A stretch of 64,000 bases of DNA from an uncultured bacterium (GTDB taxonomy: Bacteria; Acidobacteriota; Blastocatellia; Pyrinomonadales; Pyrinomonadaceae): contig CBFGMX010000001.1 in assembly GCA_965649955.1 (NCBI GenBank), positions 16,032-80,031 of the forward strand, read 5' to 3'. Under the pieces are notes generated by a model. The model had not been told where the DNA came from. It saw only the letters and a program-made list of their open reading frames with translations, and searched no databases. The position numbers were made by a program, and so were the translations under genes. Shown piece by piece: positions 7,885 to 28,047 of this stretch. Position 1 is the first letter of the stretch; the number at the start of each line of letters is the position of its first letter.

Positions 7885-8400
7885 TCACTCGTTATCCAAT
7901 AACCGGGTCGTGTGTTCGGTGACGCTTGGACGTTGGGCCAGATCGTTTGTTCTCACTTGTTGCCGGCCGGCGCCGGGTACCGGCACGTTGATAGGTGGAG
8001 GAAGTGCGCCGCGCGTTGCCGTGGAATTTAGCGTGGTGGTTTGAGCTGCCGGGATGTTCACGAGCGGGGGGTTCTTATCGCTGAAGAGTCGCGCATAGAG
8101 CATCATGGCGAGCGAGATGAAGAAAAGCAGGGCTGGAACCGCGATCGGTCCCGGCTCGCCCACCCCGATACTAATTATCAGGAACAGGGGAAACAGTACG
8201 CCGCTGAAGAACATCAACTTCGCTGCGCGCCGGATCCCCTTGCGCCGCGGTGACAAAGCAGTCGTTTGTGCTTCGGCCTGTTTTAAGGGCAGTCGACTAC
8301 CCGCGAGCCACTCCGCCAGGCCGGTGAGCGCGAGCCCACAGCGAGAACAGAACCTCATCTCATCCGAGATTTGCTGCTGACCACAATCAGGACAATACAT
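7885..8400 (-). CDS. zinc-ribbon domain membrane protein
   Basis: N-terminal MYCPDCGQQQISDEMRFCSRCG (two CxxC pairs) followed by two hydrophobic helices. Confidence 0.65.
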   Translation of the reverse strand: MYCPDCGQQQISDEMRFCSRCGLALTGLAEWLAGSRLPLKQAEAQTTALSPRRKGIRRAAKLMFFSGVLFPLFLIISIGVGEPGPIAVPALLFFISLAMMLYARLFSDKNPPLVNIPAAQTTTLNSTATRGALPPPINVPVPGAGRQQVRTNDLAQRPSVTEHTTRLLDNE

Positions 8401-8529
8401 AGGCGTTCAACGTTGGCGATTTTAGCCGAACGAAGGAGAGTACGGTAACAGATTTAAGGATGTTCCTGTTCAACGTGATCGATCGCGGATTTTCAGGCGT
8501 CACGTGTTAACTTTCGTGGTTTTCAATCC

Positions 8530-8556
8530 TTGTTCACAATGGTCGTTAATTATAAT
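8530..8556 (+). promoter_or_regulatory. candidate sigma70-type promoter for the aldo/keto reductase gene
   Basis: TTGTTC at 8530-8535, a 15-nt spacer, and a perfect TATAAT at 8551-8556 in an AT-rich patch. The spacer is shorter than optimal. Confidence 0.3.
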
Positions 8557-8588
8557 GCAGGGTACACAAATTGAATGGTGACTCCAAC

Positions 8589-9473
8589 ATGGAATCAAAT
8601 CAAGCCACTAATCGCGCGCCTCAAGTAAGAACAACCTGGTTACCGTCCGAACGAGCGATGCCTGTGCTCGGCCAGGGAACGTGGAGGATAGGTGAAGATC
8701 GTTCGCGACGCGAACAGGAGGTCGCCGCGCTTCGTCTCGGTCTCGATCTCGGAATGAACCTTATCGATACGGCAGAGATGTACGCCGAGGGTGGAGCTGA
8801 AGAGGTGGTTGGCGAAGTAATCGCGGGCCGGCGCGATAAGGTCTGTGTAGTTAGCAAGGTGTATCCCCACAACGCGACGCGGCGAGGCGCAATTCAGGCG
8901 TGCGAACGAAGTTTGCGACGGCTGAAGACTGACTACATCGACGTTTACCTGCTGCACTGGCGTGGCGACGTTCCGCTTTCAGACACTCTCCAAGCGTTTC
9001 AGATCTTGAAGGAGCAGGGGAGTATCCGGGACTACGGCGTCAGCAACTTCGACGTCGACGACATGGAGGAAGCATTTGCTTTGCCGGGAGGAGACGCGAT
9101 CGCCACCAACCAGGTGTTGTACAACCTTCTGCATCGCGGGATCGAATGGGACTTGATCCCCTGGTCTCGCGAGCGGCGCATTCCGATCATGGCGTATTCG
9201 CCGGTGGGGCATAACGCTGCGGAGCAGAAGCGATTGTTTGGCAACCGGACAATGAAAGCGATAGCGGCACGACATAACGCGACTCCCGCTCAGATCGCAC
9301 TGGCGTGGTTCTTCCGTCATCCCGATATGGTGGTGATTCCCAAGGCGGGGCGGCCCGATCACATTCGGGAGAACCGTGCCGCACTCGATCTCCAACTCAC
9401 CGAACGTGACTTCAAAGAATTGGATGAAGCCTTCCCACCTCCGAAACGAAAGGTGCCTCTGGAGACGCTTTGA
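8589..9473 (+). CDS. aldo/keto reductase
   Basis: LGQGTWRIGE, IDTAEMYAEG, YIDVYLLHWR and IPKAGRPDHIRENRAAL are present. The start is ambiguous: TTG at 8571 or ATG at 8589. Confidence 0.85.
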   Translation: MESNQATNRAPQVRTTWLPSERAMPVLGQGTWRIGEDRSRREQEVAALRLGLDLGMNLIDTAEMYAEGGAEEVVGEVIAGRRDKVCVVSKVYPHNATRRGAIQACERSLRRLKTDYIDVYLLHWRGDVPLSDTLQAFQILKEQGSIRDYGVSNFDVDDMEEAFALPGGDAIATNQVLYNLLHRGIEWDLIPWSRERRIPIMAYSPVGHNAAEQKRLFGNRTMKAIAARHNATPAQIALAWFFRHPDMVVIPKAGRPDHIRENRAALDLQLTERDFKELDEAFPPPKRKVPLETL

Positions 9474-9496
9474 TTCGTTTATTTCATGTTTGAACC

Positions 9497-9525
9497 TTGA
9501 CACCAATTTCAATCTAAATAAAAAT
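9497..9525 (+). promoter_or_regulatory. candidate promoter of the TetR gene
   Basis: Perfect TTGACA at 9497-9502, then 16-17 nt, then an A/T-rich -10-like TAAAAAT that abuts the palindrome at 9519-9542. Confidence 0.35.
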
Positions 9526-9542
9526 ACGGACGTTCGTTTTTA
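9519..9542. promoter_or_regulatory. palindromic operator candidate 1 (AAAAAT-ACGGACGTTCGT-TTTTTA)
   Basis: A 12-bp near-perfect palindrome with A/T-run flanks, 8 nt upstream of the TetR ATG. A second, perfect copy lies at 10314-10337. Confidence 0.5.
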
Positions 9543-9549
9543 TAGGCGG

Positions 9550-10269
9550 ATGCCCAAACTCAGTCCCAGCGCGATCGAAAAGAACAAGAGTCGTATCGAA
9601 GAGGCGGCCAAGAAACTCTTCATCAAACAGGGCTTTCACGCCACTTCGATGCGCAACATCGCCGCCAGAGCAGGGACGTCGCTCGGCAATGTCTATAACT
9701 ACTACCGCACCAAGGAAGACATCCTTGGCTCGATCATTGCCAAGTACCAGACGACCATCGACGGCCGCCTGCGTTCGATCTTCGACGAGATCGACGAGCC
9801 GCTTCAACCCGAGTCGCTCATGCGCTTCGGCGGGCAGATCAAGAAGATGGTGAACGACCATCACGACTTCTGGCTGTTGATGTACATCGACGTACTCGAG
9901 TTCGAGAACCGTCACTTTCGCAAGATGTTTGAAGGCCTGGTCCATAACCTGCGCCGTCGCTTCGCCACGCAATTCGCGGAGCTGAAGAGTTGCGGCGCCG
10001 TGCACGGCGACATGGACCCGGCAGTTGGTTTCACCGCCGTCTACATGCAGTTTTTCAACTACTTTCTGGTGGAGAAACTCTTTGGCGGAAACCAGCACTT
10101 CGGTTTGACCGACGAGCAGGTGATCAAGCAGTTGACCGACATGTATTGTCGGGGTTTGTTGGAGAACCACAACGGTGGTTCGCGGGCCACGAAGACTTCA
10201 GCCACAAAAAGGCACAAACAGAAAACTTCGACCACAAAAAGACCGAAGAGGCGCAAACAGAGAACATAG
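9550..10269 (+). CDS. TetR/AcrR family transcriptional regulator with a basic low-complexity C-terminal tail
   Basis: HTH region FIKQGFHATSMRNIAARAGTSLGNVYNYYRTKEDIL. ATG at 9550. The track ORF from 9376 is an upstream in-frame extension. The last ~35 aa (SRATKTSATKRHKQKTSTTKRPKRRKQRT) are encoded by the repeat element at 10186-10315. Confidence 0.85.
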   Translation: MPKLSPSAIEKNKSRIEEAAKKLFIKQGFHATSMRNIAARAGTSLGNVYNYYRTKEDILGSIIAKYQTTIDGRLRSIFDEIDEPLQPESLMRFGGQIKKMVNDHHDFWLLMYIDVLEFENRHFRKMFEGLVHNLRRRFATQFAELKSCGAVHGDMDPAVGFTAVYMQFFNYFLVEKLFGGNQHFGLTDEQVIKQLTDMYCRGLLENHNGGSRATKTSATKRHKQKTSTTKRPKRRKQRT

Positions 10270-10315
10270 ACTCGATCCTTTTGTGTTTCTTGTGTCTTTA
10301 TGTAGCGAAGAAAAG
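10186..10315. repeat. degenerate copy of the CAAAGA-unit hairpin repeat family
   Basis: Direct units CCACAAAAAGGCACAAAC and CCACAAAAAGACCGAAGAGGCGCAAAC are followed by inverted CTTTTGTGTTTCTTGTGTCTTTATGT. The motif family matches 31394-31576 and 61695-61830. Confidence 0.45.
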
Positions 10316-10337
10316 AAAAACGAACGTTCGTGTTTTT
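10314..10337. promoter_or_regulatory. palindromic operator candidate 2 (GAAAAA-ACGAACGTTCGT-GTTTTT)
   Basis: Perfect 12-bp palindrome ACGAACGTTCGT at 10320-10331 with A-run and T-run flanks, 24 nt upstream of the TonB-receptor ATG. Confidence 0.5.
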
Positions 10338-10360
10338 CCCAGACTTGTAGGAGGCAGATT

Positions 10361-13300
10361 ATGTTCACGTCCACTCGAGTAGCTCTCACCTTTTTAATCA
10401 TCCTGGCGTGCTGCGTGGCGACTGCTTTTGCCCAGGGCGGCACCGGACAGCTCAGCGGCAACGTTGTCGATACCAACGGCGCAGCCGTTCCCGGCGCCAC
10501 CGTTAAGCTGACCAGCGGCGTCACCACCCAGGAGCGCGAGGCCGTCACCAACGACTCGGGGGACTTCGTGTTCACACTTCTCCCGGCCGGCCTTTACAAG
10601 CTGGAGATCGCAGCCAGCGGATTTCGCACCGTCGTTGTCGACGAAGTGCGAATCAACGTCACGCAAACCACGACGCTGCCGATACGGCTCGACGCGGCGA
10701 CTGTCTCCGGAATGGTGACGATCAAAGCCGAAGCTCCGCTGGTCCAACAGGAGTCTTCACAGGTCGGCCGCACCATCGAAGAGCAAACGATTCGACAACT
10801 GCCGCTGCCTACCAGGAACTTTCAACAGCTACTGACGCTTTCACCCGGCACCTCCTCGTCGGTCTCGAACAACACGGAGTTGGGACGCGGCGACGCGATC
10901 ATCACCGTCAACGGCCAGCGCACCACCAGTAACAACGTGCGCATCAACGGCATCGACGCCAACTCGATCGGCACCAACTCGACGCCGAACATCGCCGTTC
11001 CGGCCACCGACTCGATCCAGGAGTTCATCGTGCAAACAAGTCTGTACGATGCTTCGCAGGGACGTAATGCCGGTGGCAACGTCGAGGCCATCACCAAATC
11101 CGGCGCAAACCCGTTCCACGGCAACGTTTATTACTTCCTGCGCAACAAGGCGCTGAACGCAAATGACTTCTTTCTCAACGCCGCGGGACGTCCGCGACCG
11201 GAGCTGAGCCGTCACCAGTTTGGCGGCACGCTCGGTGGCCCAATCATCAGAGACCGGCTGTTTTTCTTTGGCTCTTACCAGGGGACCCGCGAAACGAACG
11301 GCGCTTCACTGAACAACAGTTTGATGTCTCCGATAATTCCACCGCAGTTGCGTGACGACAATCGGACGGCGGCGGGCTTGGCTGCCGCTTTCAATCTGCC
11401 GGTCGCGACGATCAATCCCGTGATGGTTAACGTGCTCAACGCCAGGTTGCCGAATGGTGAATTTGCGATTCCGTCGGCCGCGACAGCAACGGGTTTGACG
11501 CCGATCTCAGGTCTGTCTCGCTTTCGTGAAAACCAGTTCAACGCCAATATCGACTGGCGTTTGAACGACCGCCACACGATCAGTTCGAAGAACTTCTTTG
11601 CCAGCAATCCGACTTTCCAGGCCAACTACAATTTCGCCGGTCTCGGCAATGGTCCTACTCAACTGCCGGGCACTGGCGGGACACTCGATATCATTCAGGA
11701 TCTGAACTCGATCACCCACACGTGGGTGATGTCGCCAAAAATCGTCAACCAGGCGCGTTTCGGTTTCAGCCGGTTGCGCGTGACTTCATCCGCCGAAGAA
11801 CCCTTCACCGCGCAGCAGTTTGGTATCAACAGCCCGCTACGCAACCTGTTTCCGGGAATGCCGACGCTGACCGTGACCGGACTGTTCACGCTCGGATCGT
11901 CGCCCTTTGCCGATCAGTCGTCGCGCATCAACGCGTTCACTTACGGCGATACGTTGTCTGTAGTCGCGGGCGATCACCGGTTGCGTTTCGGTGGTGAGTA
12001 TCGGCGTTCGCAGGTCAACTTTTACTTCAACGCTTTCTCGCGAGGACAGGTAATCTTTTCGACCTTCAACAATTTTCTGATCGGTAATGGCGTTTCGATC
12101 ATCGGCTCGGGCGTTTTTGATCGTGCTTTGCGGGTGAATGATTGGAGCGGATTTGTGCAGGACGACTGGAACGTCAACTCGCGCCTGACGTTGAACCTCG
12201 GCCTGCGTTACGACTTCTACGGCTACCCCGTCGATACTCGTGGACGGCTCGTCAACTTCCTGCCTGATCAGTTTCGGCAGGGCACGACGGCGGCGCCCGC
12301 TGGTCCACCCAACGGTTTTGTTCAGGCAGGCAACGGCACACTGCCAGGCGTGCCCGCGGTTGATGACGCACTCATTCCGAGTGATCGAAATAATTTCGCT
12401 CCGCGCATAGGTTTTGCCTACAAGTTGAACGACGAAGGTACGATCGTGGCCCGCGGCGGCTACGGCATCTATTACGATCGATTTTCAACTCGTTACGCCA
12501 ACACGCAGTTGCTGAACTATCCGTATCTGGCATTGGCAGTGGGTCTGCCGGGCATATTGCGGACGATGTCGGATCCGTTTATTCCCGTACCGCAGCCCGG
12601 GCAGTTTCCAGTGAACCCGACGATCCCGTCGCCGTTGTCGCCGCTGTCACCAATCGTCGGTGTGCCGATCAGCGGCATCTTCATCGATCCCGAGCTGCGA
12701 ACGCCGTACGTTCAGCAGTACAACGCGAACGTGCAGTGGGAGTTTGCGAACAACTTCCTGCTCGAGGCGGGCTACGTCGGCTCGAAAGGAACGAAACTGT
12801 TGCAGGTGATCACCCTGAACCAGCCGGTCTACAATCGTGCCGCCAACGTGTTCACGGCGCCGTTTGGCACCTTCTTGTCGACTCAGAAGAACGTGGCCGG
12901 CGGCATTCAACAGGTGCAGTCGAGCTCGAACTCCGATTACAACTCGCTACAACTGAGCGTCACGAAGCGCTTCAGCCGCGGGCTACAGTTCTTGAGCGCG
13001 TACACGTACGGGAAGTCGAACGATTACTATTCGGGTGGGGCCATCAACGAATTGTTTGCCGTCGCCGGCGATCAGTTCAACTGGAAGACCAACTATGGTC
13101 CATCCGATTTCGATAGAAGACACCGGTTCGTCACGAGTTTTGTCTACGATTTGCCGAAGCTGGTGTCTGAATCCAACTCGGCGCGAGTAGTACTCAACAA
13201 CTGGCAATTGAACGGCATCCTGACATTGCAGACAGGCACTCCGTTTTCGATCGTCGACATCGTCGGCAACAACATCATCCAGCGGGCAAACTTTGCCCCC

Positions 13301-13732
13301 GGATTTACTGGCAGCATTGAGACCAGCGGCAGCACGCAGTCGCGTTTGAATGCGTTCTTTAATCCGGCGGCGTTCGTACTGTCACGCCCGATTATCGCGG
13401 GCGGCAACCTGGGTACGCCGAACAACCCGAGGTTCGATCCGAACAACCCGTTTGGCAACACTCCGCGGAACTTTCTCTACGGTCCGGGACAGAAGAACAT
13501 GGACTTTTCCGTCGTCAAGTTCATTCCGATCACGGAAACGGTGAGAGGCGAATTTCGCACGGAGTTTTTCAACCTGTTCAACTGGGCCAACTTCGCGAAC
13601 CCAAACAACAACATCGCGGTGCCTAATTTCGTGAATCCGAACGGCACCGTTGTACCGTCGCCGTTTGGACGGATTACGTCGACGAGCGCCGGTCCGCGAG
13701 TCATCCAGTTTGCCTTCAAGGTGAACTTCTAA
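10361..13732 (+). CDS. TonB-dependent receptor with N-terminal carboxypeptidase-regulatory-like domain
   Basis: GGAGG RBS at 10349, ATG at 10361, signal peptide MFTSTRVALTFLIILACCVATAFAQ. CarboxypepD_reg-like GNVVDTNGAAVPGATVKL...FVFTLLPAGLYKLEI and plug-like region. The C-terminal residue is Phe (FAFKVNF). Confidence 0.9.
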   Translation: MFTSTRVALTFLIILACCVATAFAQGGTGQLSGNVVDTNGAAVPGATVKLTSGVTTQEREAVTNDSGDFVFTLLPAGLYKLEIAASGFRTVVVDEVRINVTQTTTLPIRLDAATVSGMVTIKAEAPLVQQESSQVGRTIEEQTIRQLPLPTRNFQQLLTLSPGTSSSVSNNTELGRGDAIITVNGQRTTSNNVRINGIDANSIGTNSTPNIAVPATDSIQEFIVQTSLYDASQGRNAGGNVEAITKSGANPFHGNVYYFLRNKALNANDFFLNAAGRPRPELSRHQFGGTLGGPIIRDRLFFFGSYQGTRETNGASLNNSLMSPIIPPQLRDDNRTAAGLAAAFNLPVATINPVMVNVLNARLPNGEFAIPSAATATGLTPISGLSRFRENQFNANIDWRLNDRHTISSKNFFASNPTFQANYNFAGLGNGPTQLPGTGGTLDIIQDLNSITHTWVMSPKIVNQARFGFSRLRVTSSAEEPFTAQQFGINSPLRNLFPGMPTLTVTGLFTLGSSPFADQSSRINAFTYGDTLSVVAGDHRLRFGGEYRRSQVNFYFNAFSRGQVIFSTFNNFLIGNGVSIIGSGVFDRALRVNDWSGFVQDDWNVNSRLTLNLGLRYDFYGYPVDTRGRLVNFLPDQFRQGTTAAPAGPPNGFVQAGNGTLPGVPAVDDALIPSDRNNFAPRIGFAYKLNDEGTIVARGGYGIYYDRFSTRYANTQLLNYPYLALAVGLPGILRTMSDPFIPVPQPGQFPVNPTIPSPLSPLSPIVGVPISGIFIDPELRTPYVQQYNANVQWEFANNFLLEAGYVGSKGTKLLQVITLNQPVYNRAANVFTAPFGTFLSTQKNVAGGIQQVQSSSNSDYNSLQLSVTKRFSRGLQFLSAYTYGKSNDYYSGGAINELFAVAGDQFNWKTNYGPSDFDRRHRFVTSFVYDLPKLVSESNSARVVLNNWQLNGILTLQTGTPFSIVDIVGNNIIQRANFAPGFTGSIETSGSTQSRLNAFFNPAAFVLSRPIIAGGNLGTPNNPRFDPNNPFGNTPRNFLYGPGQKNMDFSVVKFIPITETVRGEFRTEFFNLFNWANFANPNNNIAVPNFVNPNGTVVPSPFGRITSTSAGPRVIQFAFKVNF

Positions 13733-14533
13733 GTGCCTAAGATCTCCGTCAATGGTCTGAAGCTTTATTACGAGATCGAAGGCGATGGCGAACCGGTTGT
13801 TTTGATCCCGGGCTTTGCGGCAGGTCGCTGGATTTGGTTCAAGCAGACCAGTGACCTGTCGCGCAACTTTCGCGTTATCGTCTTCGATCCGCGCGGTGTT
13901 TCTGCTTCTGACAAACCGGAAGGCTCGCAGACGATCAGTTTGCTGGCGGACGACGTCGCACATCTGCTGCAAACAATCGGTATCGAGAGTGCGCACATCG
14001 TAGGGGCGTCGTTTGGCGGATTTGTTGCGCAGGAGTTTGCGCTGAAGTATCCGGCGATGACTCGGAAGCTGGTGCTTTGCTGCACGAGTTTTGGTGGTCC
14101 AAACCATGTCGTGCCGACGGTGGAAACGCTGCTTGCACTTGCGTCGACGAAGGGACTCAACAGCGAGGAACGGATGCGCGCAAACCTCTTGCTTGCCTTT
14201 TCGCCCGAATACGTGCAGACGCAAGTCGCGGAGGTGGACCACGTCGTTCACCTGCGATCGATAAACGAGGTGCCGGAACATATCTACCTGAGCCAGTTGC
14301 AGGCGGCGATGAGTTTCAACGCCGAATCGAGACTGGAACAGCTCGACAGGCCGACGCTCGTGTTGACTGGGAATGCAGACGTGATCGTGCCGGTGCAAAA
14401 CTCGCGCAACCTTGCGGCCAAGATTCGGGGTGCGGAGTTGCGGATTATCGAGGGTGGTAGTCACACATTCTTCATCGAACGATCGGCTGAGTTTAATCGC
14501 GTTGTGAGAGAGTTTCTTTCGAGAGGTAATTGA
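13733..14533 (+). CDS. alpha/beta hydrolase (cytoplasmic)
   Basis: GTG start directly after the receptor stop. HG-type oxyanion region and nucleophile elbow GASFGGFVA. C-terminal GGSHTFF. Confidence 0.85.
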   Translation: MPKISVNGLKLYYEIEGDGEPVVLIPGFAAGRWIWFKQTSDLSRNFRVIVFDPRGVSASDKPEGSQTISLLADDVAHLLQTIGIESAHIVGASFGGFVAQEFALKYPAMTRKLVLCCTSFGGPNHVVPTVETLLALASTKGLNSEERMRANLLLAFSPEYVQTQVAEVDHVVHLRSINEVPEHIYLSQLQAAMSFNAESRLEQLDRPTLVLTGNADVIVPVQNSRNLAAKIRGAELRIIEGGSHTFFIERSAEFNRVVREFLSRGN

Positions 14534-15525
14534 GATTGTCGTTCGCAAACATCGTCGGTACCGGTATCTACGTTCCGGAAAAGATCGTCACAAACGATGA
14601 CCTTAGTCGAATACTCGGCGAGGACATCAACGAGTTTGTTACTCAGGTCCTTGGGATTCAGGAACGGCACGTGTGTGCGGAGGATGAAAGCACGGCCGAT
14701 CTGGCGACGAACGCCGGACGGCGCGCCTTGGAAGCCGCTCAACTCGATGCGAGCGAACTGGATCTGATCATCCTCGCTACCGACACCCCGGAACAACTCT
14801 CGCCCGCCACTTCCGTGGTGGTTCAGCACCGGCTCGGCGCGGTGAATGCGGGAACGTTTGATGTGAACTGCGCTTGCGCGGGCTTTGTAACGGCACTCGA
14901 CACTGCGTCCAAATTCATCATTGCCGACGACGCTTATCGCAACGTTCTCGTCATCGGCGCATATGCCATCAGCAAGTTTCTCGATTTGCACGACAAGAAA
15001 ACCGCGACGATCTTCGCCGACGGGGCGGGTGCGGTGGTGCTTCGCGCAGCAGAGGACCGGCCAGGTTATCTCGCGGGCAAACTGCATGCGGACGGCAGTT
15101 TTTACGATCACATGGGGATCTACGCAGGCGGGACGCACTTGCCCATCACCAAAGAGGTATTAGACGAAGGGAAGTGGACCAAGGTGCGTTTTGCGAAGAA
15201 GTATCCCGCCGAGGTGAACACAGAAGGCTGGCCCGCGATCATCAACCAGGTGCTGGCAAAGTCACGGTTAACACTCGGCGATGTCAAGCTGTTTCTCTTC
15301 ACGCAGGTTAACCTGAGCACGATCAAGGAAGTGATGTCGAAGCTTGACCTGCCGATGGAACGCACGCACACGATCATGCAAAAGTGGGGGTACACAGGCT
15401 CGGCGTGCATACCGATGGTCCTTCACGACGCGGTGCAGGCGGGCAAGTTAAACCGCGGCGACAACGTGATCATGTGTGCTTCTGGTGGCGGGTTGAACAT
15501 GGCGTGCGTTGCGTTTCGCTGGTAG
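14530..15525 (+). CDS. FabH-like (KAS III family) protein with a non-canonical active site
   Basis: Full-length colinearity with FabH motifs: IVGTGIYVPE, DVNCACAGF, FADGAGAVVL. The FabH His and Asn positions read T and Y. The TTG start overlaps the upstream stop (TTGA). Confidence 0.85.
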   Translation: MRLSFANIVGTGIYVPEKIVTNDDLSRILGEDINEFVTQVLGIQERHVCAEDESTADLATNAGRRALEAAQLDASELDLIILATDTPEQLSPATSVVVQHRLGAVNAGTFDVNCACAGFVTALDTASKFIIADDAYRNVLVIGAYAISKFLDLHDKKTATIFADGAGAVVLRAAEDRPGYLAGKLHADGSFYDHMGIYAGGTHLPITKEVLDEGKWTKVRFAKKYPAEVNTEGWPAIINQVLAKSRLTLGDVKLFLFTQVNLSTIKEVMSKLDLPMERTHTIMQKWGYTGSACIPMVLHDAVQAGKLNRGDNVIMCASGGGLNMACVAFRW

Positions 15526-15532
15526 TCGATTC

Positions 15533-17155
15533 ATGAACTATCCGACCGTCTATTCCTTGTTTGTAGATCGAATGCGGAAATACGCGGGGGATAATGCCGA
15601 ACCGAGGGATGTCTTCTACTTCCGTTCCGGCGATCGCTGGCAGGGCATCTCGTGGCAGCGCTTCGAGCAGGAGACCTTCGACTTCGCGACCGCTTTGTTG
15701 TCTTACGGTTTGAAGCGCGGCGGCTCGGTTTGCATCCTGATGGGTAACGTCCCCGAGTGGCCCATCAGCGACATCGGAACGATCATCGCCGGTGGAGTCG
15801 GTGTCGGTCTCTATCCGACAAGCTCAACTGAACAGATCGCCTACATCATCGACCATTCTGATGCTGAGTTTGTGTTGGTCGATTCACGCGAGCAATTGCA
15901 GAAGGTCCTCAGCATTCGCGATCAGCTTTCAAAAGTACGACACGTGATCGCGCTGGAAGCGGATGCGTCAAACGACGTCATAAACTACCGCGATTTCATC
16001 GAACGCGGCCGCGCGGAACGCTTGCGACTGGCGTCGTTGCTGAAAGAACGTGCTGAAGGTGCGAAGCCTGACGATGTTGCCATCATGGTCTACACGTCCG
16101 GCACGACTGGCGCTCCGAAGGGCGCGTGTTTGAGTCATCGTTACATCATCAACAGCGTCGAGTCGCTGCGACAAACGATCCCAATCTACGACACCGACGT
16201 TTCATTTTCGTATCTGCCGTTCTGTCACGTGGCGGAAAGAATCTCCGGTCTTTACAACCGGCTCTACGCCGGCGCCTCGGCTTATTTTGTCGACGATCTT
16301 TCACGGCTCGGCGAGTACATGCTCGAGGTGAAACCGACGGTTTTTGCGAGTCTGCCGCGTTTTTTTGAAAAGATTCACGCGCGAGCTGCCGCGGATATGG
16401 AACGTTTGCCGAAGAGTGAACACGCTCGGTTCCTGGCGACGAAGGTCAAAGATTACTTTGGCGGACGTATTCGTCTTGCGACGTCAGGAGGAGCGCCCCT
16501 GCCGCTCGAAGTCGCGGAGTTCTTCGCCGCGGCGGGCCTGCCGATCTTGCAGGCGTATGGCCTGACTGAAAACGTTTGCGTCGCTTTCAATCGTCCTTAC
16601 GAATACAAGTTCGGTACGGTGGGACCGCCGATGCCCGGATGCGAAGTGAGGATTGCCGCGGACAAGGAGATTCTGGTTCGCAGTGAAATGATGTTCAGCG
16701 GCTACTACAAAGCACCGGAGGAGACAGCGAAAGTCTTTTCTGACGGCTGGCTGCTCACCGGCGATCTTGGTGAGTTTGACGAGGATGGTTTTCTGAAGAT
16801 CATCGGCCGCAAGAAGGAGTTGATCGTTACTTCCACCGGAAAGAAAGTCTCACCGGCGCTGCTGGAAAACATGCTGAAAGAGCATCACGTGATCAGCCAG
16901 GCGATGGTCTACGGCGAAGGACGAAGCTACCTGGTCGCATTGATCACGGTGAACGCCGCCGTTGAGCGCGATACGATTCAGTCAATAATCGACAACGTGA
17001 ACCGACGCGTATCGTCCACTGAATCAATTCGCCGCTTCGCGATCCTCGACCGTGATTTCGAGATCGAGCGCGACGAGATCACTCCCACCGGAAAACTGAA
17101 GCGCGACGTAATTACCAACCGTTTTCGAGAGGTGATCGATGAACTCTACGCTTAA
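15533..17155 (+). CDS. long-chain acyl-CoA synthetase (AMP-forming, FAA1/FadD-like)
   Basis: P-loop YTSGTTGAPKGA, YGLTEN, TGDLGEFDEDGFLKIIGRKKELIVTSTGKKVSP. ATG at 15533; the track starts at a TTG 24 nt earlier. Confidence 0.88.
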   Translation: MNYPTVYSLFVDRMRKYAGDNAEPRDVFYFRSGDRWQGISWQRFEQETFDFATALLSYGLKRGGSVCILMGNVPEWPISDIGTIIAGGVGVGLYPTSSTEQIAYIIDHSDAEFVLVDSREQLQKVLSIRDQLSKVRHVIALEADASNDVINYRDFIERGRAERLRLASLLKERAEGAKPDDVAIMVYTSGTTGAPKGACLSHRYIINSVESLRQTIPIYDTDVSFSYLPFCHVAERISGLYNRLYAGASAYFVDDLSRLGEYMLEVKPTVFASLPRFFEKIHARAAADMERLPKSEHARFLATKVKDYFGGRIRLATSGGAPLPLEVAEFFAAAGLPILQAYGLTENVCVAFNRPYEYKFGTVGPPMPGCEVRIAADKEILVRSEMMFSGYYKAPEETAKVFSDGWLLTGDLGEFDEDGFLKIIGRKKELIVTSTGKKVSPALLENMLKEHHVISQAMVYGEGRSYLVALITVNAAVERDTIQSIIDNVNRRVSSTESIRRFAILDRDFEIERDEITPTGKLKRDVITNRFREVIDELYA

Positions 17156-18029
17156 ACCCGCGAGACGTCTTATCAGCACGTTGCTGTTATTGACCGCGAG
17201 CGTCATCACGGTTGCCGCGCAAACAAGCACAGCAACTGCGCCGGCGGCGAAAGAGGTGCTCGTCTTCGGCCAGAAGATCCAGTACGTCGAAGCGGGTTCG
17301 GGACCAACCGTGATCCTGCTGCACGGCCTGGGTGGTTCAGCGCAGGTGTGGCAGCTCAACATCGGGCCGCTGGCTGAGAAGTATCGCGTGATCGTCCCCG
17401 ACCAGATCGGCTTCGGAAAGTCCGACAAACCCCTCGTCAACTATCGCATTCGTACTTACGTCGACTTCCTGGATCAGTTCTGCAAGCAACTGAAGATCGA
17501 GCGCGCGTCGCTCGTTGGCAATTCGATGGGTGGATGGATCGCAGCGATGTTTGCTGCGTCTTTTCCCGATCGTGTCGACAAGCTGGTGCTGGTGGATGCC
17601 GCCGGTTACGCGCCGCCGAAGGGGTTCGATACCCGAGTATTTTACGGTTTGAATCCGACGACGAGGGAAGGGATGAAAGTCCTTTCGGCGAAGGTCTTTT
17701 ACAGCAAGATATTTCAAACAGACGTCGCCATCGACCAGGCGATCGCCGCGCGGCTGGCGGCCGGCGACGGTTACACGATCAACAGCATCACGGAATCGAT
17801 TATCCGCGGCGAAGACCTTCTAGACGAGACTGTGAAAACGATCAAGCGGCCGACGCTGATCGTTTGGGGACGCGAAGACGGTCTAACGCCGCTGTCGGAC
17901 GGTGAGCGATTCAATAAAGACATTGCCGGTTCGAGGCTGGTTGTTTTCGATCAGTGCGGGCACGTGCCGAACTTTGAAAAAGCTGTGGAGTTCAATGCGG
18001 CGGTAATCAAGTTTCTGGGAGAGAAATGA
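17139..18029 (+). CDS. secreted alpha/beta hydrolase
   Basis: Signal peptide ...LLLLTASVITVAAQ, HGLGGS, nucleophile elbow GNSMGGWIA, C-terminal CGHVPNFE. Overlaps the ligase gene by 17 nt. Confidence 0.85.
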   Translation: MNSTLKPARRLISTLLLLTASVITVAAQTSTATAPAAKEVLVFGQKIQYVEAGSGPTVILLHGLGGSAQVWQLNIGPLAEKYRVIVPDQIGFGKSDKPLVNYRIRTYVDFLDQFCKQLKIERASLVGNSMGGWIAAMFAASFPDRVDKLVLVDAAGYAPPKGFDTRVFYGLNPTTREGMKVLSAKVFYSKIFQTDVAIDQAIAARLAAGDGYTINSITESIIRGEDLLDETVKTIKRPTLIVWGREDGLTPLSDGERFNKDIAGSRLVVFDQCGHVPNFEKAVEFNAAVIKFLGEK

Positions 18030-18430
18030 AACTCAACGCCGGCGACAGCGCCGAAATAACAAAGACCATCGGGGAAGCGGACATAGTTGCGTTTGCTGAG
18101 GTGACAGGAGATCACAATCCCGTTCACCTCGACGAATCGTTCGCGCAAAAGACGCGCTTTGGACGGCGGATCGCGCATGGGATGTTGACCGCGTCGCTGA
18201 TCTCGGCGGTGCTTGCAAACAAACTACCGGGGCAGGGAAGCGTGTATTTAGGTCAGACGCTTCAGTTCGTGGCGCCGGTGTTTCCGGGTGACGAGGTGAC
18301 GGCTCGCGTTACTGTGACGGCGGTCCGCGACGACAAACCCATCGTGAAGCTCGAAACGATATGCGTGAACCAGCGCGGCGAGACTGTTATTCGCGGTGAA
18401 GCAACGGTTCTTCTTAGTGATGTCGAGTGA
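18026..18430 (+). CDS. MaoC-like (R)-specific enoyl-CoA hydratase
   Basis: Hydratase motif FAEVTGDHNPVHLDESFA, hot-dog-fold size (134 aa). ATGA overlap with the upstream gene. Confidence 0.88.
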   Translation: MKLNAGDSAEITKTIGEADIVAFAEVTGDHNPVHLDESFAQKTRFGRRIAHGMLTASLISAVLANKLPGQGSVYLGQTLQFVAPVFPGDEVTARVTVTAVRDDKPIVKLETICVNQRGETVIRGEATVLLSDVE

Positions 18431-18436
18431 TGTGAA

Positions 18437-19720
18437 ATGAGCTCAGCCGAAACATCGACGATCGACAACGCCGCGACAGTAGTCAAGGAAGACGTCAGCA
18501 GCTATTCGTGGTACGCGCTCGGATTGTTGACGCTCGTCTACGTCTTCAACTATCTCGACCGCACGATCATCTACATCCTCCTGCCGCTGATCAAGAAGGA
18601 GATGGCGTTCTCTGACGTCCAGCTCGCGATGCTCGGCAGCATGTCGTTCGTCATTTTCTTTACTGTCCTCGGGATTCCATTCGGAAGGTTGGCCGATCGC
18701 GCGGTCCGGAAAAACATGATCGCCGTGGGCCTGGCGGTCTGGAGTCTGTTTTCCGGCCTGACAGGATTCGCAACCGGTTTCTGGTCGTTGTTGATCTGTC
18801 GCGTGATGGTCGGTGTCGGCGAGGCGACACTTGGACCAGCGGCGTTGTCGTTGTTGAGCGACTACTTTCCGCCGCGCGTCAGGGCAACGGTGCAGGCGAT
18901 CTACTCTTCCGGCATTGCCGTAGGCGCTGGTCTCGCCTTCTTTCTCGGCGGGTGGTTGGGCCAAAACTACGGCTGGCGCATCGCGTTCTACGCTTTGGGT
19001 TTTCCGGGAATCGCGATTGCCGTGCTGGTCTATCTACTGCGCGAGCGACCGCGAGGCACGACGGAGGTCGCCACCACGAGATACACGTCGAACGACTGGA
19101 AGATTCTCTTCAAGTCTGTGCCGCTGCGTTATCACTATCTCGGTTACGGGTTCTTTGGCCTGGCAGCGAACAACCTGTCGTTCTGGGGCCCAACGTTTCT
19201 CACTCGCGTTTACAAACTCGATTTGTTGACGATCGGATTTTATGGCGGCGTGTTGACGTTGATAGCCGGCGTGCCAGGGACGATTCTCGGTGGTTACCTC
19301 GCTGACAAGTTTCGCCGGTTTGGACGTGGCGGGCGGATGTTGTTCGGGGCGTTGGCCGCGCTGATCGCGGTGCCGTTCTGGTTTATGTTTATATTCTCCG
19401 GGAGCCTTTTGCTGCTGCTGATTGCGAACCTGGTTTTGCTGGCGCTATCGCTGGTGTGGCTCGGACCGGCCGCGGCTGACATTCACGACATTGCAGGTCC
19501 GCAACTGCGTGGTCTGGGAATTGGTGTTTACTTCTTCGCCGTCATCATTGCCTTCGGGATCGGTTCGCTTGTGATCGGCCAGCTTAGTGATTGGTTGGGC
19601 GCCGCCGCCGCACCGCTTAACATGCGATTCTCGATGTTGGTGTGTCCGATCGCATGTCTGGCGGCGGCGCTGAGTCTGTGGCAAGGTCATCGATCCGCCA
19701 ATCGAACCTTGCCTGCCTGA
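18437..19720 (+). CDS. MFS transporter
   Basis: About 12 hydrophobic helices and the MFS loop motif GRLADRAVRKNMI. Starts 6 nt after the MaoC gene. Confidence 0.88.
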   Translation: MSSAETSTIDNAATVVKEDVSSYSWYALGLLTLVYVFNYLDRTIIYILLPLIKKEMAFSDVQLAMLGSMSFVIFFTVLGIPFGRLADRAVRKNMIAVGLAVWSLFSGLTGFATGFWSLLICRVMVGVGEATLGPAALSLLSDYFPPRVRATVQAIYSSGIAVGAGLAFFLGGWLGQNYGWRIAFYALGFPGIAIAVLVYLLRERPRGTTEVATTRYTSNDWKILFKSVPLRYHYLGYGFFGLAANNLSFWGPTFLTRVYKLDLLTIGFYGGVLTLIAGVPGTILGGYLADKFRRFGRGGRMLFGALAALIAVPFWFMFIFSGSLLLLLIANLVLLALSLVWLGPAAADIHDIAGPQLRGLGIGVYFFAVIIAFGIGSLVIGQLSDWLGAAAAPLNMRFSMLVCPIACLAAALSLWQGHRSANRTLPA

Positions 19721-20395
19721 TTACGCTGCGCGAGGCAATCGCTCCGCCACACTCGGCTTCGGTGCGACTGCATGCTTCGTAGAGTTCGCCAGCGCTGCAC
19801 GAATGTCGTACCAGTGAAGCGCAACGTCGGCCAGCGGTACTGATGCGACCAGGCATGTCCAGATGACCGCCTGCACAATCTCCACACCCAACGCCTCCGC
19901 ACCGGTTACTCCGAGGACGAAGCGTCCGCCAATAAATACCAGCGCTACGGCGTAACTCCGTGTGGCCCATTGGCGATGCAGGGCGATCTTTCGTTTGAAG
20001 GCGAAGAAACCTGCGAGCGTAGTCGTACCGATGAGCAGTGCAGCGTCGACTATCGCGAGAATTGTGAATGAACGCGGTGCGCCTCCGCGCTCCTGGAAAT
20101 ATTGAATGTACGCGCCGGTTGGCGCCAGCACGTAAACGCCAAGGACGTAAAGTCGGCCCATCACACGATGCGCCTTGGTGAAACGTTGCCGCAGCCTATT
20201 CGAAAACTGAAACGGGGCGAACAGCAGCACGATGCTGCCGAAAACGGCGTGTGGCAGTAACCACCACTTGAAAGACTCATACCGCTGCCATGCCGGGTGG
20301 TCTGCTTGTACCACGAAGCGTTCGTTGTGCCAGAGGACGTAAACCGTAGCCAGTGTAATCGCGGTAAATACAACGCGTTTCGCGTCAACCTTCAT
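19721..20395 (-). CDS. DUF2306-like integral membrane protein
   Basis: Six predicted helices; pattern LPHAVFGSIVLLFAPFQF...HRVMGRLY. The stop abuts the convergent MFS stop with no spacer. Confidence 0.55.
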   Translation of the reverse strand: MKVDAKRVVFTAITLATVYVLWHNERFVVQADHPAWQRYESFKWWLLPHAVFGSIVLLFAPFQFSNRLRQRFTKAHRVMGRLYVLGVYVLAPTGAYIQYFQERGGAPRSFTILAIVDAALLIGTTTLAGFFAFKRKIALHRQWATRSYAVALVFIGGRFVLGVTGAEALGVEIVQAVIWTCLVASVPLADVALHWYDIRAALANSTKHAVAPKPSVAERLPRAA

Positions 20396-20493
20396 CGAGG
20401 GACTCCTTTTGGCCAGCCATCAAGAGCTAACCTGTTTAATAACGCGAAGTTCAGTTGTGTTTCGGTTCACGTGAGGAGGGATCTTGTAGGATT

Positions 20494-21138
20494 TCAGGTC
20501 CAGCCGCGGAAGCGGGCGTAATCGACGACCTCAGCCCGGCTCTTCAAATCCAGCTTTTGCATGGAGTTGGCTTTATGGGTCTCGACGGTCTTGACGCTGA
20601 TTGAAAGCTCGTTCGCAATCTCTTTGTTCGTGTATCCGTTCGCAACCAGCGACAGCACCTGGATCTCCCGCTGTGACAACGGTTTGCCTTGCGGCTCGCC
20701 TTTAAAAACGCGGTCGTCCAGTGGTGAGTGTGCCAGCGACTCCCGAGAGGCGCGGTCGACGTAGGTGCCACCTTTTGCGACTGTCTGGATGGCATCGATC
20801 AGTTCATCGATCGCCGCTTGTTTGAGGACGTAGCCCGAGGCACCCGCCTTCAAGACCTCGTTCAAGTAAGCGCTCGCACGATGGCCGGTCAACGCAATGA
20901 CTTTTACATTCGGACACAGCTCCCGAATCTTCACGGTTGCTTCAGCGCCGTTGAGTCGCGGCATCGTGATGTCCATGAGTACGATGTCCGGCTCGAGCTC
21001 CTTGGTCTGTTGCCAGGCCGCGACGCCGTTGTCCGCTTCGCCTATGACCTCCATGTTCGGCTGTTCGGCGATCAGTCTTTTTAGTCCGTCACGGAGTATT
21101 CGATGGTCCTCGGCAAGCAGGATTTTTAGTTTTGCCAT
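20494..21138 (-). CDS. NarL/FixJ (LuxR-type HTH) response regulator
   Basis: MAKLKILLAEDHRILRDGL..., receiver Asp in VLMDITMPRLNG, C-terminal LSQREIQVLSLVANGYTNKEIA. The ATG at 21138 is preferred over the upstream extension to 21222. Confidence 0.88.
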   Translation of the reverse strand: MAKLKILLAEDHRILRDGLKRLIAEQPNMEVIGEADNGVAAWQQTKELEPDIVLMDITMPRLNGAEATVKIRELCPNVKVIALTGHRASAYLNEVLKAGASGYVLKQAAIDELIDAIQTVAKGGTYVDRASRESLAHSPLDDRVFKGEPQGKPLSQREIQVLSLVANGYTNKEIANELSISVKTVETHKANSMQKLDLKSRAEVVDYARFRGWT

Positions 21139-24376: not shown

Positions 24377-24456
24377 TGTGGTTCGCTAGTTGGCGTTGCA
24401 CTAGGGACTAGGGTCCGCCACAAAACTTGAGTACCGTTTGTGCAAGCCTCCCTAGT

Positions 24457-26022: not shown

Positions 26023-26025
26023 AGC

Positions 26026-26961
26026 TCAGTTTTCTAAAAGGTTCTGCAGTATCAGCGACCGGACGTTTGGATGAACTCGCAACCAGAGTCCGGGGTTTTG
26101 ATCGAATTGTGTTTGCCGCGTCTCTGCGTCGGCGGCGATTTTGGTGTTCAATAAATTTCGGTAACTCTCACGCTTCGCGGGCGCCGTGTCCGCGTCGACG
26201 ATCGATTGCACCACTCTGCGTGCGCCGAGAATCGCGGCCGGACCGAGCGTCAGAATGTGACGCGCCGCGCGGCACTCAGCTTCGTCGGCTTCGGTGACGA
26301 CCGTGCCGCCTGCTTTAAATTTTTTGATGTGGTGCTCGAGAATCGATTCGGAGAGGGGAATTAGCCCGCCGATGTCCGTGTAAGTCGCGCCGGAATTTGG
26401 TTTGATGTAGCACAAGTGAGACGCGCCACCCGCTTCCGGTCCAAGACCCAGGAAGAAGAGATCGATGCCGCCCAGCCATTCGAGGCGCTCGACGTATCCC
26501 GCCAGTTCAGCCTCGAGGTCTTCGGCGTCCGTGCGCATGGAGGTAAAGCTCTGAACTTTGCGAAAGAAGTCCGGCCCGAGCAGTCGTTCGAAATCGCGCA
26601 CGAAACTCAAACCATTGTCCATCCGAAGGGGCGCGAGGGCGTCCTGCGTAAACACGTTGAGGCGACCGAGTAAGTGATCGTATTCGCTGGTTTTGGCCAT
26701 CTCGCCGAGGAGCCGGTGCAAAGCCTGCCCGCCCCGTCCGCCGACGATGACGATTACGAGCGATCCGTCTTTTGCACGGCAGGCGTTCGTAATCTCGTCG
26801 AGCATCGCGCGACCGACTGCCTCTTCTGACGGTTGCACCTGGTACGGCAGGTTGTGGACGGCCAGCGTCGCTAGATATCCCGGGTCGGCAGAGTCGTGGG
26901 AAAGCCAGATATTTCCACCGACCGCCCGACGCCGAATGATTTGTTTGCCAGTCGCCGACAT
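26026..26961 (-). CDS. NagB/6-phosphogluconolactonase-superfamily sugar isomerase/deaminase-like protein
   Basis: IVIVGGRGGQALH and DLFFLGLGPEAGGASHLCYIKP resemble the NagB G-x-G-x-DGH region. The start is set at ATG 26961. The stop lies 3 nt before the uxaA start. Confidence 0.55.
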   Translation of the reverse strand: MSATGKQIIRRRAVGGNIWLSHDSADPGYLATLAVHNLPYQVQPSEEAVGRAMLDEITNACRAKDGSLVIVIVGGRGGQALHRLLGEMAKTSEYDHLLGRLNVFTQDALAPLRMDNGLSFVRDFERLLGPDFFRKVQSFTSMRTDAEDLEAELAGYVERLEWLGGIDLFFLGLGPEAGGASHLCYIKPNSGATYTDIGGLIPLSESILEHHIKKFKAGGTVVTEADEAECRAARHILTLGPAAILGARRVVQSIVDADTAPAKRESYRNLLNTKIAADAETRQTQFDQNPGLWLRVHPNVRSLILQNLLEN

Positions 26962-27137
26962 TTTGGTAATACCAATTCCGATAAGGAAGCAAGACTTTAC
27001 CACGCAGGCCGCGACTACACAAGGAACATTTTCCCTTGAAACGGCCCGTGGAAAGCCCATCTAATCGTAAATCAGAACGCGACTTTTTGTGCTTGACGGC
27101 AGCAGAGGCCCGGTGTTACACAGTATGCGAATTTTCT

Positions 27138-28025: not shown

Positions 28026-28047
28026 CAACTCCAAGGAGTGAAAGCAC

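Follow-up and report, generated by a model that had tools for sequence, protein, structure and literature searches.

The window analyzed here, 64,000 nucleotides of contig CBFGMX010000001.1 from an uncultured soil member of the Pyrinomonadaceae (Acidobacteriota), contains at 14530–15525 an open reading frame (ORF) of 331 codons that begins at TTG14530 and encodes a protein with the fold of ketoacyl-acyl carrier protein (ACP) synthase III (KAS III, or FabH). Gene callers on identical metagenome contigs use the next TTG (14536), which is probably the true start and gives a product of 329 amino acids. The protein keeps the nucleophilic cysteine of FabH as Cys116, but Thr258 and Tyr288 stand where FabH has its decarboxylation His and Asn, and we refer to this protein and its Cys-Thr-Tyr (C-T-Y) relatives as the CTY clade. 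As we discuss below, comparisons of sequence, predicted structure, conservation, and gene context indicate that it is a functional, neofunctionalized KAS III-fold enzyme and not an initiator of fatty-acid synthesis.

Both Pfam domains of KAS III (ACP_syn_III and ACP_syn_III_C) matched the protein, at 88.6 and 91.2 bits and each over its cut-off, and a phmmer search of all PDB sequences returned canonical FabHs at the top (2EBD at 7.5e-61, 4RYB, 8VD9, and 4DFE). An AlphaFold2 model, for which the input was an 18-sequence clade alignment, was confident (pLDDT 93.1, pTM 0.92), and Foldseek placed FabH structures first among its PDB matches (TM ~0.9, root-mean-square deviation 1.5–2.4 Å), in agreement with the fold assumed in a preliminary description of this DNA. 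That description had aligned the translation to FabH by eye and read Cys112 as retained, His244 as replaced by Thr, and Asn274 as replaced by Tyr. The motifs concerned are DVNCACAGF (residues 111–119, containing Cys116), LFLFTQVNLST (residues 254–264, containing Thr258), and KWGYTGSAC (residues 285–293, containing Tyr288). Full-length HMMER alignments set ‘ftqvn’ opposite ‘pHQANv’ and ‘kwgYtgsa’ opposite ‘kyGNTsaA’ with maximal posterior probability, and a MAFFT L-INS-i alignment with E. coli FabH (a reference sequence identical to PDB 1HN9) and 113 homologues paired Cys112 with Cys116, His244 with Thr258, and Asn274 with Tyr288. The by-eye register was thus right at all three positions, and proper alignment places neither a His nor an Asn or Asp at the catalytic sites. 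No compensating His near the site was conserved in the CTY relatives.

Changes in the active site extended well beyond the His/Asn pair. In an alignment anchored on E. coli FabH, the signature was present without exception in all 17 full-length C-T-Y representatives, and 96 more distant matches had the canonical Cys-His-Asn (C-H-N) residues. Comparison of 17 C-T-Y with 96 C-H-N sequences (E. coli numbering) revealed that the clade retains Cys112, Gln245, Asn247, the G305-x-G307 oxyanion loop, the FxDGAGA motif, and an aromatic residue at Trp32. The H244→T, N274→Y, and S279→C replacements were each found in 17 of 17 C-T-Y proteins, F304→S in 16, and F87→S in 14; further clade-specific changes were T81→D, A216→N, G209→K, M207→F, and V212→P, and the flap at 190–216, which forms the CoA tunnel, carries an insertion. 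In the numbering of the window protein, Cys293, Ser318, Asp85, Ser91, and Asn230 correspond to Ser279, Phe304, Thr81, Phe87, and Ala216, respectively. Phe87 caps the acyl pocket in E. coli FabH, and its replacement by Ser is predicted to enlarge that pocket. Arg249 is the ACP-docking residue of FabH and was Arg in 78 of the 96 canonical sequences, but the window protein has Ser at this position, and the clade as a whole has Ser or Glu; two more basic docking residues, Lys256 and Lys257, are not conserved in the CTY clade either.

Lacking the His/Asn pair, the protein should be unable to drive malonyl decarboxylation and, because the ACP-docking arginine is absent, its second substrate is probably not malonyl-ACP. 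Scores against curated models were divided: the protein exceeded the cut-off of the broad subfamily model PRK09352 (NF006829; 271 versus 249 bits) but scored 234 bits against TIGR00747 fabH, for which the cut-off is 292 bits, and was under the cut-off of all equivalog models as well. Because two defining residues and the ACP surface both fail the comparison, the protein is probably not FabH in function. The earlier judgment that it is an unlikely starter of fatty-acid synthesis is strengthened by loss of the decarboxylation pair and Arg249, by the TIGR00747 score, and by an operon without fab genes.

Phe304 of FabH is, we presume from the positions of the oxyanion-hole glycines (Gly306 in FabH, Gly380 in thiolase), the equivalent of the thiolase acid/base residue Cys378. 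If this equivalence holds, the four catalytic loops of the superfamily would carry Cys, Thr, Tyr, and Ser in the CTY clade. We know of no characterized superfamily member with this combination, and found no report of it in the full-text literature on KAS III homologues. Cys293, in the GYTGSAC motif, was considered as a second catalytic cysteine of the thiolase type. We rejected it as a leading idea because it aligns with FabH Ser279, five residues into the helix that follows the loop-3 residue, and because the conserved Cys at the same offset in type III polyketide synthases (PKSs; GNMSSAC) is presumably non-essential and non-catalytic. Cys293 is more likely to be structural than catalytic.

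The C-T-Y site marks a large and sharply bounded group. An exhaustive HMMER search over 1.84 billion cluster representatives (50%-identity clusters) returned 1,427 relatives at E≤1e-30; every full-length top match was C-T-Y down to ~41% identity, with canonical C-H-N below, and the clade shared the motifs FTQ[VIL]N and GYTGSAC. An unrooted neighbor-joining tree contained a single clean bipartition, with all x-H-N proteins on one side and all C-T-Y proteins on the other, together with one C-N-Y, one S-P-Y, and one G-S-F protein (the last two Cys-less) and one broken sequence. At least 7,900 protein clusters matched the CTY motif. A pattern scan of 185,579 species-representative genomes, in which Tyr288 but neither Cys116 nor Thr258 was part of the search pattern, found at least 599 loci, at least 598 of them confirmed as motif matches. 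Our GTDB locus analyses used the best 80 of these, which fall in Acidobacteriota (Pyrinomonadaceae, Blastocatellia, ‘Chloracidobacterium’), Gemmatimonadota, Myxococcota (Archangium, Pyxidicoccus, Corallococcus), Chloroflexota, and Actinomycetota. Cys116, Thr258, Tyr288, and Cys293 were present in 80 of 80 of these loci, and Asp85, Ser91, Asn230, and Ser318 in 79. Relative to orthologues of 86–88% identity, dN/dS was 0.04–0.08; the CTY gene is under strong purifying selection and is not decaying. Free variation of Thr258 and Tyr288 among orthologues, named in the preliminary description as a possible sign of decay, was not seen. The sequencing runs that contained the locus were soil DNA metagenomes only, and no RNA runs containing it were found among those searched. 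Cultured carriers include Pyrinomonas methylaliphatogenes K22, Archangium gephyra, Pyxidicoccus, and Corallococcus.

Some members depart from the single-copy arrangement. Tandem CTY paralogues occur in one locus (L088, 327–2319), each with the complete C-T-Y signature, and two distant clade members have lost the Cys (P0239, S-P-Y; P0232, G-S-F). Because of these paralogues and Cys-less proteins, some lineages may use hetero-oligomers or inert subunits. In two other loci (L098, 9013–10026; L084, 3632–4717), the CTY gene stands beside a second KAS III-like family, just 23–24% identical, with the motifs R-C-G-T-T, L-H-M-K-R, and G-H-[IV]-G-Q, which amount to a Cys with His positions shifted.

The neighboring genes in the window are listed in the table below; they overlap or abut from 13733 to 18430. 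The start of the CTY gene overlaps the stop of the upstream esterase gene (…AGGTAATTGAGATTG…; ATTGA), which suggests that the two are translationally coupled, and the ligase ORF begins before the CTY gene ends, although its called start is 15533. A PDB search returned no close solved relative of the ligase. For the PhaJ-type hydratase, the match to 1IQ6 spans all 134 amino acids, and P. aeruginosa PhaJ (5CPG) came next. PDB relatives of the second α/β-hydrolase include CumD, BphD, HsaD, and a polyhydroxybutyrate (PHB) depolymerase. Its N-terminus is a typical Sec signal peptide (MNSTLKPARRLISTLLLLTASVITVAA followed by QT), and its nearest solved relatives are cytoplasmic meta-cleavage-product (MCP) hydrolases; it is more likely an esterase that acts on imported substrate in the periplasm. 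Pfam and NCBIfam searches of the operon found no fab, acpP, PKS, carrier-protein, or DUF35 genes, and the 64-kb window holds no second KAS III-like gene or other FabH. By gene content, this appears to be an uptake and catabolic operon and not a biosynthetic gene cluster.

Genes of the operon that contains the CTY gene (window coordinates).
Feature	Coordinates	Strand	Evidence and remarks
TetR-family regulator, operon head	9424–10269	+	Pfam TetR_N; called coordinates
TonB-dependent-receptor-like outer-membrane transporter	10361–13732	+	Pfam OMP_b-brl_4 (3e-198), CarboxypepD_reg, weak Plug; longest ORF from 10175
Cytoplasmic α/β-hydrolase (esterase), nucleophile motif G-A-S-F-G-G	13733–14533	+	Pfam Abhydrolase_1; best PDB match Est1 (6EB3), 1e-53, full length
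KAS III (FabH)-fold protein, Cys116/Thr258/Tyr288 site (CTY clade)	14530–15525	+	Pfam ACP_syn_III and ACP_syn_III_C, alignments, AlphaFold2
AMP-forming acyl-CoA ligase, long-chain FadD11-like	15509–17155	+	Pfam AMP-binding and AMP-binding_C_3; NCBIfam FadD11/PRK06187 below cut-offs
Putative secreted or periplasmic α/β-hydrolase, MCP-hydrolase/esterase-like, GNSMGG motif	17139–18029	+	Pfam, NCBIfam; signal peptide by eye, MNSTLKPARRLISTLLLLTASVITVAA then Q
PhaJ-type (R)-specific enoyl-CoA hydratase, MaoC hot-dog fold	18026–18430	+	Pfam MaoC_dehydratas; Aeromonas caviae PhaJ (1IQ6), 4e-38
MFS organic-acid transporter, inner-membrane uptake	18437–19720	+	Pfam MFS_1; NCBIfam anion:cation and aromatic-acid symporter subfamilies, below cut-offs

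Much of this gene company recurs across phyla. Among the 69 loci in which ORF clustering recognized the CTY gene, an AMP-ligase was present in 65 and an α/β-hydrolase in 61, followed by TonB-type transporters (36 loci, with examples in Gemmatimonadota too), TetR regulators (35; in Myxococcota and Chloroflexota, too, one precedes the CTY gene), MaoC proteins (32), and MFS transporters (30, with SSF or ABC importers elsewhere). Importers were always nearby, whether TonB-dependent transporters with MFS, SSF, or ABC systems. The ligase lay directly downstream of the CTY gene in 38 of the 60 loci with enough flanking sequence, and the hydrolase directly upstream in 43 of 63; once, the ligase was replaced by a CoA-transferase (L098). 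This synteny supports the earlier proposal that the enzyme uses an acyl group supplied by the adjacent acyl-CoA ligase.

Individual loci illustrate how the set varies. A Gemmatimonadaceae locus contains LacI, CTY, ligase, SSF symporter, MaoC, TonB receptor, and PHB-depolymerase-family esterase genes, and an Archangium locus has TetR, CTY, and ligase genes, then an α/β-hydrolase and a secreted class-2 lipase. Other arrangements are MarR, TonB receptor, short-chain dehydrogenase/reductase (SDR), CTY, SSF, and hydrolase (P0124); CTY, ligase, hydrolase, SDR, ligase, hydrolase, and ABC importer (P0122); ligase and CTY adjoining acyl-CoA dehydrogenase and electron-transfer flavoprotein (ETF) genes (P0145); and ABC importer, hydrolase, CTY, and another KAS-like gene, with a CoA-transferase substituting for the ligase (P0134). 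The invariant theme appears to be an imported acid, its activation with CoA, the CTY enzyme, and one or two α/β-hydrolases, usually with a hydratase or an SDR. No canonical thiolase was present in ~95 loci examined, no acpP, pls, or fab gene in any locus examined, no ACP, peptidyl carrier protein, or PKS gene in the related loci examined, and no recurrent aldehyde dehydrogenase among the loci.

Several neighbors belong to types that handle (R)-3-hydroxyacyl-CoA or polyhydroxyalkanoate (PHA). Class III PhaC-like proteins, paired and bearing the diagnostic cysteine box G-Y-C-M-G-G, occurred in six loci (353 bits, against a TIGR01836 cut-off of 365), extracellular short-chain-length PHA depolymerase domains with signal peptides in four (NF050058; 281 bits, cut-off 150), a secreted class-2 lipase/PhaZ7-like esterase in 13 (~60% identical between Blastocatellia and Myxococcota), and FabG/PhaB-like SDRs in 18. 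In two of the four depolymerase loci (L014 and L038), the CTY protein is 78–79% identical to that of the window. Taken together, these gene sets appear to follow the classical PHB/3-hydroxyacid route, from depolymerase and oligomer hydrolase through dehydrogenase or hydratase to CoA activation, with the exception of the thiolase. Because thiolase is the sole missing step and the CTY gene the sole conserved gene without an assigned step, the CTY enzyme may fill the ‘thiolase slot’. Whether the operon handles (R)-3-hydroxyalkanoate or PHA-type substrates is, in our judgment, evenly balanced. Beyond what the preliminary description had noted, then, the gene belongs to a large, coherent clade and to an uptake/catabolic operon, and its neighbors point to (R)-3-hydroxyacyl-CoA/PHA metabolism.

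A Blastocatellia variant of the locus (L028, 7986–14261; L034, 7992–15640; L032, 8001–15320) has four elements inserted between the CTY and MFS genes: a 110-residue protein that matched no Pfam or NCBIfam family and appears by eye coiled-coil and phasin-like, a tandem pair of MaoC genes, a class III PhaC-like synthase (Cys lipase box) in one or two copies, and a 423-residue secreted protein that matched no family. The PhaZ7-like esterase occurs in Acidobacteriota (L028, L029, L042, L046, L048, L056) and Myxococcota (L065, L068, L071, L074, L075, L078, L080). Because this esterase is 53–77% identical between the two phyla while the Myxococcota CTY proteins are 54–56% identical to that of the window, there is a hint that the module has moved between phyla.

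Very probably, the CTY protein works through an acylated Cys without decarboxylation and receives its acyl group from the ligase. Cys116 would accept the acyl group of the CoA thioester that the co-transcribed ligase produces, using the retained backbone oxyanion hole (the G319-G-G321 loop), to give an acyl-S-Cys intermediate. In the pathway we envision, the enzyme would carry out a cytoplasmic step of a TetR-controlled uptake operon: secreted or periplasmic esterases would liberate an organic (hydroxy-)acid, which would be imported by the TonB-type outer-membrane transporter and the MFS transporter and converted to its CoA ester by the ligase; the PhaJ-type hydratase, or a PhaB/FabG-like reductase in other lineages, would then interconvert enoyl-, (R)-3-hydroxy-, and 3-oxoacyl-CoA, and the CTY enzyme would catalyze a non-decarboxylative acyl-Cys reaction. 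That reaction could be thiolase-like (3-oxoacyl-CoA + CoA ↔ acyl-CoA + acetyl-CoA), with the hydroxyls of Thr258 and Tyr288, together with Ser318 (equated with the thiolase acid/base Cys), polarizing the thioester or enolate and shuttling a proton. The fold, the residue equivalences, their conservation, and the synteny are established by the comparisons above; we infer acylation of Cys116, CoA rather than ACP as the partner, the substrate class, and thiolase-like chemistry, and we favor this last assignment tentatively, as the leading candidate among several.

Several observations weigh against thiolase-like chemistry and the PHA connection. A thiolase-type Claisen reaction needs a general base or acid, a role for which Thr, Tyr, and Ser are poorly suited, and no strong base is obvious; thiolases use a second Cys, and OleA a Glu, in this role. 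The equivalence of Phe304 with Cys378 is a presumption from the positions of the oxyanion-hole glycines. Genomes carry many thiolases, which makes recruitment of a KAS III fold hard to explain. At least one PHA-type neighbor was found in only 21 of the 80 genomic loci, the class-2 lipases matched PhaZ7 weakly (100 bits, cut-off 450), and in the window operon PhaC and a dehydrogenase are missing, no depolymerase match exceeded a curated cut-off, and the ligase resembles long-chain (FadD11-like) enzymes and not those specific for 3-hydroxybutyrate or acetoacetate.

A broader version of the thiolase-like proposal, which we regard as improbable, holds that the CTY clade is an unrecognized catalytic class of the thiolase superfamily that supplies a missing C–C or C–O cleavage in the use of environmental polyesters (PHA) or hydroxy-fatty acids. 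In Acidobacteriota, Gemmatimonadota, Myxococcota, and Chloroflexota, the enzyme would then be either a non-homologous replacement for thiolase or a CoA-dependent ‘ester thiolase’ able to turn oligo(3-hydroxyalkanoates), imported and activated just once, into hydroxyacyl-CoA units without ATP for each monomer.

Related cleavage also figures in a close rival of the thiolase-like reaction, an O-acyl (ester) transferase acting through acyl-S-Cys116 in the manner of CerJ, ChlB6, and ChlB3, which we regard as possible but somewhat unlikely. In the forward direction, such an enzyme would take the acyl group activated by the ligase and pass it to a hydroxyl, for instance the 3-OH of a hydroxyacyl-CoA; in reverse, CoA would cleave oligo(3-hydroxyalkanoate) esters (ester thiolysis) and free hydroxyacyl-CoA units, and Tyr288 would protonate or deprotonate the alcohol. 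CerJ, ChlB6/ChlB3, and DpsC have the KAS III fold and form acyl-Cys (or acyl-Ser) intermediates without decarboxylation, and the CTY protein resembles them in its fold, in keeping the Cys while losing the decarboxylation pair, and in its proposed chemistry. CerJ-type transferases had already been offered as an analogy in the preliminary description. The hydroxyls of Thr258, Tyr288, and Ser318, at positions that face the nucleophile in FabH, would suit binding or protonation of an alcohol or alkoxide, the neighboring esterases, PHA depolymerases, and PhaC-like polyester synthases all handle ester-linked hydroxyacids, and the gene directly upstream, probably translationally coupled, encodes an esterase. 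However, the characterized KAS III-like acyltransferases retain the His and have Asp for Asn (Cys/Ser-His-Asp) and act on carrier-protein or sugar acceptors in polyketide clusters, whereas the CTY protein has Thr and Tyr, no His, and an uptake/catabolic operon, and no carrier protein is encoded in the CTY loci. Ester transfer would also fail to explain why an SDR or hydratase regularly accompanies the gene and why thiolase is absent.

Pairing with a MaoC hydratase is the main attraction of retro-aldol cleavage, in which the PhaJ-type enzyme would hydrate enoyl-CoA to 3-hydroxyacyl-CoA and the CTY enzyme would split the latter into an aldehyde and acetyl-CoA. Ltp2 and Sal, steroid side-chain aldolases of the thiolase superfamily in which canonical residues are swapped for Tyr and Cys as acid–base pairs (Tyr302/Cys304 in CtSal, Tyr294/Tyr344 in TcLtp2), catalyze such cleavage next to MaoC hydratases (PMC12329534), and both Tyr and Cys are invariant in the CTY clade. 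These enzymes, however, belong to the SCP2-thiolase-like branch, require a DUF35 partner, lack a nucleophilic Cys, and lie in steroid catabolic clusters (PMC12329534); of the family's features the CTY protein shares the MaoC neighbor only, its Cys being invariant and DUF35 absent. Many CTY loci, moreover, have an SDR or no hydratase instead of MaoC, and no aldehyde dehydrogenase recurs among them, making retro-aldol cleavage very unlikely.

Two further alternatives would keep part of the FabH reaction, and for both we judge the chance to be slight. A transacylase would pass ligase-activated exogenous fatty acids from CoA to ACP for lipid synthesis, performing the first half-reaction of FabH only. 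FabH itself shows acyl-CoA:ACP transacylase activity as an intrinsic side reaction, transacylation is reported to survive in His/Asn mutants, the ligase is adjacent, and the F87→S change would enlarge the acyl pocket; but Arg249 is lost with no conservation of Lys256 or Lys257, acpP, pls, and fab genes are missing from every locus, and the neighbors are catabolic (esterases, hydratase, importers, and acyl-CoA dehydrogenase/ETF in L093). Alternatively, decarboxylative Claisen condensation may persist, with hydrogen bonds to the malonyl thioester donated by the Thr and Tyr hydroxyls instead of by His and Asn, in an unusual KAS III or an acetoacetyl-CoA-synthase-type enzyme that supplies, for example, 3-oxoacyl-CoA to PHA synthesis. 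The protein is closest overall to true FabHs (36–39% identity, TM 0.9), it passes the broad PRK09352 cut-off, hydroxyls can donate hydrogen bonds, and some loci contain both a PhaC-like synthase and a PhaB-like reductase. Nevertheless, both decarboxylation residues are replaced together and invariantly, loss of either His244 or Asn274 is reported to abolish decarboxylation in E. coli FabH, Phe304 is replaced and ACP docking lost, scores fall below the fabH equivalog-level models, and the operon has an uptake/catabolic architecture. Least credible of all is the idea that the protein has no catalytic activity, whether as a structural or regulatory subunit comparable to PqsB of PqsBC or as a pseudo-enzyme in decay. 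A few distant relatives without Cys (P0239, P0232) and the tandem paralogues in L088 and L098 would fit an inert subunit, but Cys116 does not vary across phyla, nor do seven or more other positions of the pocket, dN/dS is low, and the window contains a single copy with no catalytic partner paralogue.

Comparison with characterized systems places the non-decarboxylating acyl-Cys enzyme proposed here apart from each of them. With FabH (Aquifex 2EBD, E. coli 1HN9), it shares fold, length, a TM score of ~0.9, 30–39% identity, the nucleophilic Cys at the N-terminal end of the central helix, Gln245 and Asn247 of ‘HQAN’, and both the GxG oxyanion loop and the FxDGAGA motif; it differs in His244→Thr, Asn274→Tyr, Phe304→Ser, Phe87→Ser, Ser279→Cys, loss of Arg249, a tunnel flap (205–216) rebuilt with an insertion, and location outside a fab cluster. 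PqsC is FabH-like, has Cys and His without the Asn, is loaded by acyl-CoA, and needs the inactive paralogue PqsB. Its incomplete triad is a point of likeness, and the PDB match was weak (6ESZ, 1e-14); but PqsC keeps the His and a partner, whereas the CTY protein has no His and is single-copy in the window, with tandem paralogues in some distant loci only. Thiolases (PhaA/BktB/FadA) share the superfamily, the proposed non-decarboxylative acyl-Cys chemistry, and the ‘thiolase slot’ in the gene sets, but form a different subfamily, defined by the Pfam domains Thiolase_N and Thiolase_C and by a Cys-Asn-His-Cys tetrad; the CTY protein has Thr and Tyr in loops 2 and 3 and, by the presumed equivalence, Ser in loop 4, and NCBIfam thiolase models matched it marginally (20–31 bits). 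OleA, a head-to-head Claisen thiolase, combines Cys-His-Asn with a Glu base from the partner subunit and has oleBCD neighbors. The match of the CTY protein to OleA structures was weak and partial (residues 37–134, ~59 bits), it lacks the His/Asn pair, and the neighboring FadD11-like ligase gave no OleC or OleD assignment. Judged by these features, the CTY clade appears to lack what defines CerJ-type acyltransferases, PqsBC, OleA, thiolases, and Ltp2/Sal.

Two leads suggested by gene content or distribution were rejected. An OleABCD-like β-lactone/olefin module (KAS-like enzyme, ligase, α/β-hydrolase, SDR) was set aside because of the weak, partial OleA similarity and the absence of His, Asn, and Glu, as well as the FadD11-like ligase, the importers, and the signal-peptide esterase. 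For a link to ether-lipid (elb) genes, raised by the shared distribution in Blastocatellia and Myxococcota, the matches concerned other enzymes, and no gene in the loci looks like an elb gene.

Every public name given to CTY members is ‘ketoacyl-ACP synthase III’, and we found no description of the clade in full-text searches on KAS III homologues, KAS III-like acyltransferases, or PHA/PHB-linked clusters, and no database name for it. It appears to be a large, coherent, uncharacterized KAS III subfamily whose Cys-Thr-Tyr(-Ser) site is without precedent and whose catabolic context is conserved. Because public annotation gives all clade members this name, thousands of genes from soil bacteria are probably mis-assigned to fatty-acid synthesis, an error that passes into metabolic reconstructions of abundant, hard-to-culture soil phyla. 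For enzymology, the clade offers a natural experiment in rewiring of the thiolase/KAS active site, in which the Cys was kept and His, Asn, and Phe became Thr, Tyr, and Ser. The company of TonB-type importers, secreted esterases, PHA depolymerases, PhaJ, and PhaC-like synthases points to a conserved, undescribed soil module that may scavenge ester-linked hydroxy- or fatty acids and, if so, would be relevant to carbon turnover and to biodegradation of polyesters (bioplastics). No paradigm is overturned, but the clade is a defined and widespread target for enzyme discovery as well as a systematic annotation error, and the cultured carriers make its function directly testable.

Outside the operon core, an aldo-keto reductase gene precedes the TetR gene. 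The longest ORFs of the two (8571–10269) overlap by ~100 nucleotides (9376–9473), and the later starts chosen by gene callers (8658 for the reductase and 9424 for TetR) still give an overlap of 50 nucleotides. Because the reductase is syntenic in the closest relatives only, it may not belong to the operon. A scan of 8000–20600 for promoters and terminators gave counts within shuffled expectation and was uninformative about operon boundaries, and tRNA and Rfam scans of the window found nothing. HEAT-repeat proteins of 726 and 1158 amino acids, with no other recognizable domain, are encoded at 422–2602 and 48227–51703. Downstream of the operon, at 22880–34918, lies an unrelated hexuronate/pectin region with genes for an FGGY kinase, a GD_AH protein of the altronate-dehydratase type, an SDR, an MFS transporter, a PfkB kinase, and an 851-residue fusion of GH28 (polygalacturonase-like) and GH88 (unsaturated glucuronyl hydrolase) domains.

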